A DNA stretch of 64,000 nucleotides, taken from IMG/VR virus record IMGVR_UViG_3300042870_001240, one strand, 5' to 3'. The notes beneath the pieces are model-generated. The model searched no databases and was not told the origin of the DNA. It saw only the letters and a list, made by a program, of their open reading frames with translations. Below are positions 13,095 through 13,550 of the stretch, one piece after another (the first letter of the stretch is position 1; each line of letters starts with the position of its first letter). This stretch comes from a virus (Duplodnaviria > Caudoviricetes). Position numbers and translations under genes: made by a program.

Positions 13095-13550
13095 GTCAGA
13101 CACTCACACCGATAGGGTTCACATCGGAACTGACGTTAGGTTATATAGTATCCCTTAACTGCTATTATCCCTCCCGACTATCCCTTTTGAGTTAAAGAGC
13201 TTAGTAACCATCCATCGGGGGTTTCTACTTTCACACTCCGTCCATGTTTACTTATCTAATCGATGCGTCATAGAGTTTTCAACATAGCGTTCAGTGCTAT
13301 CCTCAGAACATCTTCACCCTACCCCCAAAGTTACGTGGTGAGTCTCACTCGGAAGAAGAGTGTATATTGTAAGATTGTTCAGTATTCTTACAACTTGTGG
13401 ATTGTATTACGACTAATTAAAGCCCCTTACCCCCTTAACCCATAATGGGGAATCCTTACCTAACCTGTGTAGCCTCCCCCATAGCCTTGAAGCCTTCAAG
13501 TCAGGTTCACACGCCATAACAGTCGGATATCTCTGTTAATCGTGGGGTCT
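13095..13550 (-). ncRNA. Unassigned large structured RNA candidate (~450 nt)
   Basis: Own promoter (TACATTTG 13563-70) and terminator; GC-richer than its surroundings; many hairpins; no credible ORF. Confidence 0.6.

Follow-up and report, generated by a model that had tools for sequence, protein, structure and literature searches.

What is encoded by the G+C-enriched stretch that lies downstream of a tRNA-Leu gene in a 64,000-nucleotide (nt) piece of Caudoviricetes DNA (IMG/VR record IMGVR_UViG_3300042870_001240)? For this stretch of DNA, the whole of which is called the window here, an initial annotation had proposed a large non-coding RNA of no recognised class at 13095-13550, furnished with its own promoter and terminator. 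It had further suggested a scan against Rfam and a collection of homologues, and both were carried out in this study. We consider it probable, at roughly 60%, that the locus encodes a stable, trans-acting structured non-coding RNA, which lies outside Rfam 15 and belongs to a metagenome-only clade of large phages. As a candidate new class of large phage RNA it is well supported by the comparison of its homologues.

The non-coding RNA gene is about 460 nt long and occupies 13551-13089 on the minus strand of the window. RNA position 1 corresponds to 13551, and the window coordinate is 13552 minus the RNA position. According to nhmmer and the alignments of homologues, conservation begins at AAGACCCC; the conserved start reads A(A/U)AGACCCCAC and falls on 13551/13550. 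Upstream of it the flanks vary from locus to locus: some are the 3' end of a tRNA, some contain a TACATTTGTA box, and others belong to one of three further recurrent types of spacer. On the other side, the conserved unit takes in the first terminator-like hairpin and its U-run, and ends at 13089. The last stem of this conserved 3' hairpin ends at 13095, in agreement with the limits that had been proposed.

A coding reading of 13551-13089 was excluded. The longest open reading frames within the stretch encode 60 and 34 amino acids (none exceeds 61), and each of the six frames contains 5-19 stop codons. No 3-base periodicity of variation was found in the alignment of homologues (0.141, 0.147 and 0.154 for the three positions), and the indel runs among them are mostly not multiples of 3. 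The G+C content of the RNA body is 40-44%, as against 27-36% in the flanks and about 30% in the genome. The lack of a credible reading frame and the enrichment in G+C had both been noted in the initial annotation.

Homologues came from environmental sequences. No match to the RNA was obtained by blastn (11-base words) in 50,697 GenBank phage records, and a pattern scan of 185,579 bacterial and archaeal species genomes of GTDB gave 0 matches; therefore, no host or prophage copy was found. The protein encoded downstream of the RNA (12625-13035) has 340 relatives in IMG/VR, and a few of those loci carry an 80-92% identical copy of the RNA at a distance of 1-2 kilobases (kb). Further homologues were retrieved with conserved blocks used as DNA patterns, so that three independent patterns stand besides the route through the neighbouring protein. 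The pattern searches yielded 28 IMG/VR loci, 3 more divergent ones, 85 metagenome contigs and 26 additional IMG/VR loci; the pattern AATCCACAAGTNGTA was poorly specific and returned mainly random loci and just 3 new homologues. Altogether, the RNA is present in 146 of the 328 fetched loci, all of them metagenomic phage contigs.

From the loci gathered before the last search, which added the 26 loci, 107 full-length matches were reduced to 85 distinct sequences with 65-100% identity. Clustering below 93% identity left 50 representatives, among which pairwise identity goes down to 65%. The family is drawn from IMG/VR and JGI/ENA metagenome contigs only. The carrier contigs reach 298-304 kb, and the RNA is single-copy in four whole IMG/VR records. 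Across homologues the core measures 340-471 nt and the whole RNA 400-550 nt. A literature search surfaced only work on GOLLD, ROOL and OLE and no description of this RNA, although journals or theses beyond the search may differ.

The fold was derived from an alignment of the 50 representatives (A4). A structure of 85 pairs was curated from helix-level scans and inspection, and the pairs were counted in Python. Because mutual information with average product correction was dominated by clade structure, compensatory changes were counted at the level of helices. The curated pairs are 96.5% canonical, compared with 86.3% when partners were shuffled within columns and 35-41% when partners were slid by 1-3 columns. 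Compensatory change was observed in 53 of the 85 pairs, while 300 shuffles gave 32.6 on average and never more than 38. RNAalifold, applied to the 50 representatives, recovered the nested hairpins independently, with compensatory change in 30 of 64 pairs. A look for extra isolated covarying pairs among the unpaired columns gave only transitions and G-U noise. The core of the proposal, a large RNA outside the recognised classes, withstood all the tests applied. As judged by comparative sequence analysis, the locus belongs to a strand-specific, conserved and multiply pseudoknotted non-coding RNA family with defined ends that is absent from Rfam 15.

The fold consists of about 12 core helices, three core pseudoknots (PK) with covariation support, two invariant long-range helices and a fourth pseudoknot in the 3' tail (Table 1). 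The majority of the core helices are 97-100% canonical; PK3 (92.5%) and Hj (95.4%) are lower. The 5' domain is, according to the alignment, tied by two loop pseudoknots. PK3 occurs among homologues as AUCC/GGAU, ACUC/GAGU, ACCA/UGGU and AUCUG/CAGAU, and the variable pair of PK1 may be G-C, U-A, A-U or G-U. In He, a C-G pair is exchanged for U-A in 16 of 50 sequences. PK2 is found as GAACA/UGUUC, GGACA/UGUCC and AGACA/UGUCU, its partner strand lying about 65 nt downstream of the Hg loop. The 3' strand of Hi sits in the junction of the 3' three-way domain, which seems to fold back onto the centre of the RNA. Conserved G-U pairs are numerous (50/50 in Hg, 45/50 in PK1 and 42/50 in Hf) and would be A-C mismatches on the opposite strand. 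The folded strand is therefore the minus strand, which is also that of the tRNAs.

Five stems had been pointed out in the initial annotation. Ha, Hg, Hh and the inner 3' hairpin among them are conserved with compensation, but CTTGAAGGCTTCAAG is not a conserved pairing. This palindromic element (CUUGAAG/CUUCAAG) is 89.7% canonical and shows no compensation, and it acquires A-C mismatches where Hd has an A-U to G-C exchange. The alternative, a CCUGA/UC(A)AGG stem with a loop pseudoknot, is 99-100% canonical with compensation.

The 3' part of the RNA forms a cap. Its architecture is common to 71 distinct tails. The outer stem is 64.5% canonical on the MAFFT tail alignment, in which its columns are misaligned. 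PK4 joins a 4-5-nt segment of the tail to the loop of the inner hairpin, and at least seven complementary versions of it occur: UACCA/UGGUA, CGCCA/UGGCG, CACUA/UAGUG, CAUCA/UGAUG, UGGUA/UACCA, UGAGA/UCUCA and UGGGA/UCCCA. The hairpin 13095-13134 and the following U6 have the form of a terminator, and had been taken for one, yet they are a conserved pseudoknotted module of the RNA; the part of the proposal that stands is a clean terminator further on, at 13066-13088 on the minus strand. The 5' strand of PK4 is flanked by two similar, short A/U-rich words that change together between clades (13140-13165, minus strand), such as GAUAAUAG ... GAUACUAU in the window copy and AAUACUAU ... AAUACUAC in the homologue L094. 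No complementary partner for these words was found, and as direct repeats they cannot pair with each other.

Table 1. Positions of the RNA, its structural elements and neighbouring features in the window. Canonical and compensatory values refer to pairs in the alignments of homologues.
Feature	Window position	RNA position	Strand	Observations
Conserved core	13162-13551		minus	opens with AAGACCCCAC; nhmmer and alignments, 85 distinct full-length homologues
Predicted closing helix	13544-13548 with 13321-13325	4-8 with 227-231	minus	ACCCC with GGGGU; RNAalifold; complementary in 50/50
Ha hairpin	13517-13538	14-19/30-35	minus	10-nt loop; 98.3% canonical; 4/6 pairs compensatory
PK3 (Ha loop)	13525-13528 with 13452-13455	24-27 with 97-100	minus	AUCC with GGAU; 92.5% canonical; 4/4 compensatory
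Hc helix	13467-13512	40-43/82-85	minus	98.5% canonical; encloses Hd and PK1
Hd hairpin, bulged A	13485-13505	47-51/62-67	minus	99-100% canonical
PK1 (Hd loop)	13491-13493 with 13472-13474	59-61 with 78-80	minus	GCU with GGC; 100% canonical
He hairpin	13430-13451	101-105/118-122	minus	97.6% canonical; loop with almost invariant AUUAUGG
Hf hairpin	13411-13424	128-131/138-141	minus	invariant UUAA loop; 100% canonical; 2/4 compensatory
Hg hairpin, 9 base pairs	13366-13394	158-166/178-186	minus	100% canonical; 7/9 compensatory
PK2 (Hg loop)	13376-13380 with 13306-13310	172-176 with 242-246	minus	GAACA with UGUUC; 98.4% canonical
Hh hairpin	13346-13362	190-194/202-206	minus	7-nt loop, conserved CUUCC; 100% canonical; 2/5 compensatory
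Hi long-range helix	13329-13334 with 13204-13209	218-223 with 343-348	minus	GUAACU with GGUUAC; complementary in 50/50
Hj helix	13233-13297	255-259/315-319	minus	95.4% canonical; 4/5 compensatory; exchanges GCAC/GUGU, UGGU/ACCA, ACCC/GGGU
Hk helix, bulged A	13170-13221	331-337/375-382	minus	100% canonical; 6/7 compensatory; encloses Hi strand and Hl
Hl hairpin	13182-13199	353-358/365-370	minus	99.3% canonical; 6/6 compensatory
3' tail and cap	13089-13161		minus	single-stranded tail, then outer stem enclosing inner hairpin, then U-run
PK4	13152-13155 with 13114-13117		minus	AGGG with CCCU (inner-hairpin loop); 93% canonical; 4/5 compensatory
Outer stem	13130-13134/13095-13099		minus	GUCAG/CUGAC; by-eye support from tail alignment only
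Inner hairpin	13109-13127		minus	stem 98.9% canonical; 4/4 pairs compensatory
U-run (U6)	13089-13094		minus	closes the cap
tRNA-Leu(TAG)	13696-13780		minus	upstream, same strand; ARAGORN and Rfam; spacer of about 145 nt to the RNA
Promoter-like box TACATTTG	13563-13570		minus	overlaps a 9/12 sigma-70-like TTGATA-17-TACATT at 13565-13593
Second, canonical intrinsic terminator	13066-13088		minus	terminator scan; 9-base-pair stem and T-run
cREC_REC (PF20274) gene	12625-13035		minus	136 amino acids; directly downstream; E = 2.6e-22
GOLLD	5727-6131		minus	full Rfam match, 319 bits; directly followed by tRNA-Met 5636-5709
tmRNA, phage-encoded	3650-4066		plus	Rfam, 78.6 bits; not called by ARAGORN

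The RNA is modular, with two optional inserted domains. A Y-shaped insert of about 85 nt, located between RNA positions 86 and 96, is present in about one third of the members and carries compensatory changes of its own. The second is the Hj sub-domain (13238-13292), which is replaced by an 8-nt loop in short forms; the two helices inside it align poorly and are 73% and 84% canonical there. In the Y-shaped insert, as seen in the long-form homologue L082 (625-1098, minus strand), two hairpins show covariation, and a GGGGAAGUUCC loop is conserved. A GGAAG within it is the complement of the conserved CUUCC in the Hh loop, which might allow a tertiary contact. The core also contains long invariant blocks that are mainly unpaired, namely AGACCCCAC, GGCUAUGGGG, AUUAUGG, AAUCCACAAG, GUAACUUUGGGGGUA.GG.GAAGA and GGUUACUA. 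Such conservation in unpaired sequence would argue for a conserved partner, self-contacts or catalysis.

The genomic position of the RNA is constant with regard to tRNAs. The window copy lies downstream of tRNA-Leu(TAG), as had been described. ARAGORN detected 521 tRNAs on the strand of the RNA at 85 loci and 0 on the opposite strand, and Rfam detected 127 tRNAs and nothing else at ten homologue loci. The first nucleotide of eight copies lies -3 to +4 nt from the 3' end of a tRNA. Among the 54 loci that have a following tRNA on the same strand, there are 33 in which this tRNA starts 67-77 nt past the core, just after the 3' cap. As the RNA mostly stands directly after one tRNA and before another, it is normally an internal unit of a tRNA-array transcript.

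The proposal of a separate transcription unit holds at most for the window copy and a few others. The box TACATTTG is indeed present at 13563-13570 on the minus strand, but the motif occurs at chance frequency (TAnnTTTG: 122 copies observed in the window, 106 +/- 9.6 expected), and most homologues lack it. A TACATTTGTA box is found at equal distance in the loci L023 and L025 and is missing from most others. TAnnTTTG boxes would fit a Bacteroidota host, although they are not enriched in the window. The terminator at 13066-13088 is confined to the window copy and close relatives such as L247 and L257. In addition, the spacer between tRNA-Leu and the RNA contains an element of about 85 nt (13615-13700, minus strand), which is 92-100% identical in about 20 other loci and there often occupies another place in the tRNA array (in L101 it is 4 kb away from the RNA). 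Its predicted fold is branched and no Rfam family matches it; it may represent a small structured RNA in its own right or a tRNA-like unit that has degenerated.

The gene directly downstream encodes a cREC_REC protein. This family of cyclic-phosphate-processing receivers is linked to RNA-repair systems. The protein is a candidate for an RNA-end-processing or repair function beside an RNA-rich region.

Does the RNA belong to a described family? With gathering thresholds, Rfam 15 detected GOLLD, tmRNA and three tRNAs in the whole window and none at 13090-13551. A permissive scan of 12900-13900 (E<=10, 4227 families) gave nothing but weak matches of terminator type at the very 3' end, and L082 had no match at E<=10 either. 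The window itself holds positive controls, since its true GOLLD scores 319 bits and its tmRNA 78.6 bits. The GOLLD model (RF02032) found neither a match of at least 150 bits to its conserved 3' domain nor any match at E<=10, in 12900-13900 or in L082, and blastn of the RNA against the full GOLLD region of the window gave only chance matches of 9-15 nt. Likewise, the ROOL model (RF03087) had no match at E<=10 to the short or the long form. No bacterial RNase P RNA model (A or B) matched at E<=10, and inspection revealed no P4-like pairing. Neither a tRNA-like domain nor a tag reading frame, the features of tmRNA, was detected in the RNA by ARAGORN and Rfam. Models of group I and group II introns and of small self-cleaving ribozymes were without match at E<=10, and the RNA is flanked by intact tRNAs or unrelated spacers, not by split exons. 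The absence of tmRNA, RNase P and intron signatures stated in the initial annotation was thus confirmed, and no Rfam family covers the RNA. An RNase P-like reading, in which GGGUGAAG and AGAAACCC loosely resemble conserved regions, was rejected for want of a model match and of a P4-like pairing.

The nearest relatives in kind are GOLLD and ROOL, which are phage RNAs "often near tRNA islands" (bioRxiv 10.1101/2024.12.08.627333), and the suggestion of a new ornate RNA in their manner is upheld as to the niche, but no match to either of them was obtained. GOLLD is likewise a large, elaborately structured phage non-coding RNA located by or within tRNA islands on the tRNA strand, and it too has a variable or optional domain set into a conserved scaffold. 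The window contains both RNAs, on one strand and 7 kb apart, and at least one other phage has both as well (6.5 kb apart in record G003). However, GOLLD exceeds 800 nt whereas the core of the new RNA has 340-470 nt, the helix plans differ, and no similarity of sequence or model exists between them. GOLLD forms a homo-oligomeric nanocage, a D7 14-mer (bioRxiv 10.1101/2024.12.08.627333). This cage was demonstrated by cryo-electron microscopy (cryo-EM). The two RNAs occur independently, because a complete record of 298.8 kb (CheckV 100%) carries the new RNA and no GOLLD. A fusion of the homologues to a GOLLD-like 5' domain, hinted at by a shared CGAAGTAATCT string, was considered and rejected; blastn of the GOLLD region of the window against 1.2 kb upstream of each homologue gave only tRNA and promoter-region similarity, and Rfam found no GOLLD at 10 homologue loci.

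ROOL is the closest in size and in its pseudoknot-rich, tRNA-associated character: this phage or prophage RNA has about 500-650 nt and multiple pseudoknots, often lies near tRNA islands and is without a known protein partner (bioRxiv 10.1101/2024.12.08.627333), and the new RNA has about 460 nt and four supported pseudoknots. The known sources of ROOL are rumen samples and Lactobacillales, those of the new RNA metagenome contigs only. The likeness between the two is one of kind and does not argue for homology. In sequence and fold the new RNA is unrelated to GOLLD or ROOL, though the genomic niche is shared. RNase P RNA and tmRNA are also structured, pseudoknotted, similar in size and functionally tied to tRNAs. 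Thus, the RNA is new at the family level, having no homology to any Rfam 15 model, while a large ornate phage RNA near tRNA islands is an already known kind.

Maturation of long RNAs by tRNA punctuation is known from the 3'-end pathway of MALAT1/mascRNA and from mitochondrial transcripts. The ends of the new RNA similarly coincide with the ends of flanking tRNAs, and a structured 3' cap stands directly before the next tRNA. This arrangement is as expected if tRNA-processing nucleases release the RNA and the cap stabilises its 3' end. MALAT1/mascRNA is an analogy of mechanism only, without homology, and no U-A-U triple helix is evident in the new RNA.

We propose that the RNA would be transcribed within the polycistronic tRNA-array transcript of the phage and released by the maturation enzymes of the tRNAs on either side. 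Its 5' end would arise from tRNA 3'-end processing, and its 3' end from RNase P cleavage at the next tRNA or from termination at the U-run; the window copy may additionally use its own promoter-like box and the second terminator. The knotted cap would protect the 3' end against exonucleases. Like GOLLD and ROOL, for which such a role has been proposed, the folded particle might then serve during infection in those parts of host take-over that concern translation and tRNAs. Self-assembly may underlie this role, or else the RNA may bind or sequester a conserved factor of host or phage, with the invariant single-stranded blocks as its putative working surface.

Several points weigh against this reading. 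Transcription, the processing sites and the stability of the RNA are all deduced, and its function is deduced from the genomic niche and the conservation pattern only. The minimum-free-energy fold of the window copy taken as a single sequence has z = -0.37, and 36 of 100 shuffles fold equally well. Because this fold is no better than chance, the many stems alone are no evidence, and the case for more than chance comes, at the level of sequence, from the comparison of homologues. The family thus compared is narrow (at least 65% identity) and its members are related, and the compensatory counts are therefore not independent events. The invariance of the blocks is partly circular because three of the retrieval patterns demanded parts of them; the protein-anchored homologues, for which no pattern was used, carry the same invariant blocks. 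Hi and the predicted ACCCC/GGGGU helix lack covariation support because both strands are invariant, and these long-range helices are to be regarded as plausible. Finally, no tight linkage to a partner protein was found, the cREC_REC gene being present in the fetched stretch of 26 of the 146 loci at a distance of 0.2-12 kb.

Among the other explanations, two are live rivals. The RNA could be a large ribozyme that processes tRNA-array transcripts or excises itself, with the invariant joining regions as a putative active site. Long invariant unpaired blocks in a pseudoknotted scaffold are the pattern of known large ribozymes, and the RNA lies strictly inside tRNA arrays and abuts tRNA ends. However, ordinary tRNA-processing enzymes can explain these ends, the search patterns imposed part of the invariance, and GOLLD and ROOL are similarly conserved without known catalysis. 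Together with the empty scans for RNase P, introns and small self-cleaving motifs, this makes a ribozyme unlikely. It is also conceivable, though quite unlikely, that the RNA is a decoy or shield against host defences that target RNA, such as anticodon nucleases and toxins directed at tRNAs or ribosomes, and works alongside phage tRNAs and RNA-repair genes. Its place in a tRNA array, the cREC_REC gene next downstream in the window and the presence of tmRNA and GOLLD within the same RNA-rich region of 10 kb would suit such a role. The idea is purely contextual, however; the linkage to the cREC_REC gene is loose, and the RNA has no detected tRNA-like domain.

The remaining rivals concern the nature of the element itself. 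Covariance models can miss distant variants, and the niche of GOLLD and ROOL is shared, so the RNA might be a divergent member of these or of another described family such as RNase P RNA or tmRNA. This is improbable given that 0 of 4227 families match either form even at E<=10 while GOLLD and tmRNA of the same window score highly, that size and helix plan differ, and that blastn against the GOLLD region found chance matches only. A cis-acting leader (riboswitch or attenuator) of the gene at 12625-13035 was considered because the RNA precedes that gene, shares its strand and has terminator-like hairpins at its end. In homologues, however, what follows the RNA, at 67-77 nt, is usually a tRNA, with the cREC_REC gene 0.2-12 kb away or outside the fetched stretch, and in the window a TATATTTG box at 13037-13044 separates the terminators from the gene; we hold a leader to be highly improbable. 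That the locus is no RNA gene at all, but codes for a protein, is a pseudogene or works at the DNA level (as an origin or a packaging site, for instance), scarcely deserves credence. The only footing of this view is the short frames of 60 and 34 amino acids, against which stand the stops in all frames, the lack of codon periodicity and the non-triplet indels; the conserved G-U pairs are strand-specific and fit RNA rather than duplex DNA. Taken together, a structural, assembling or sequestering RNA is the most likely, a ribozyme and an anti-defence decoy follow, and the cis-regulatory, coding and DNA-level readings are essentially excluded.

Other elements of the window deserve mention. Upstream of GOLLD, a G+C-richer stretch extends to about 6600 and probably represents the variable 5' half of that RNA. 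TATCTTTG boxes are found at three places (6631, 6738 and 6939), and a promoter-like region at about 6730-6775 is common to the upstream regions of several homologue loci. A weak tRNA call at 15065-15152 (minus strand) was made by Rfam only (32.5 bits) and not by ARAGORN; a G+C-richer stretch (about 40%) lies beside it at 15100-15300. The call could reflect an unusual or decayed tRNA, or else an additional RNA element. Two small proteins of 129 amino acids (13994-14383, minus strand) and 156 amino acids (14576-15046, minus strand) look like paralogues because they share the motifs Y.QALALKELGFDEP at the N-terminus and EEAEL.CLI.LIE at the C-terminus; the 129-amino-acid protein has no Pfam match. 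The phage also carries unusual cargo, namely a full-length Hsp70/DnaK (33719-35590, minus strand; E = 2e-254), the best phage matches of which are uncultured phages of 630-735 kb, and a protein resembling GAF-PAS histidine kinases (39549-41480, minus strand).

Among bacteria and phages, large RNAs of elaborate and conserved fold are few, and each of those studied gave unexpected chemistry or architecture. Examples are RNase P, group I and II introns, OLE and the nanocages of GOLLD and ROOL. It is a tentative and rather doubtful idea that the present RNA constitutes a third unrelated class of large tRNA-island phage RNA, acting as a self-assembling RNA-only particle or as a new ribozyme on tRNA transcripts; if it is true, the co-occurrence with GOLLD would imply two different RNA machines at work in one phage. 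With its core of 340-470 nt, the RNA offers a compact target for cryo-EM and probing and a concrete test case for tRNA-punctuated maturation of a non-tRNA RNA in phages. It also provides a natural comparison for the function of GOLLD and ROOL. An unrelated RNA family in their niche points to a recurrent selective need of tRNA-rich large phages, which may have been answered by differing RNA solutions.

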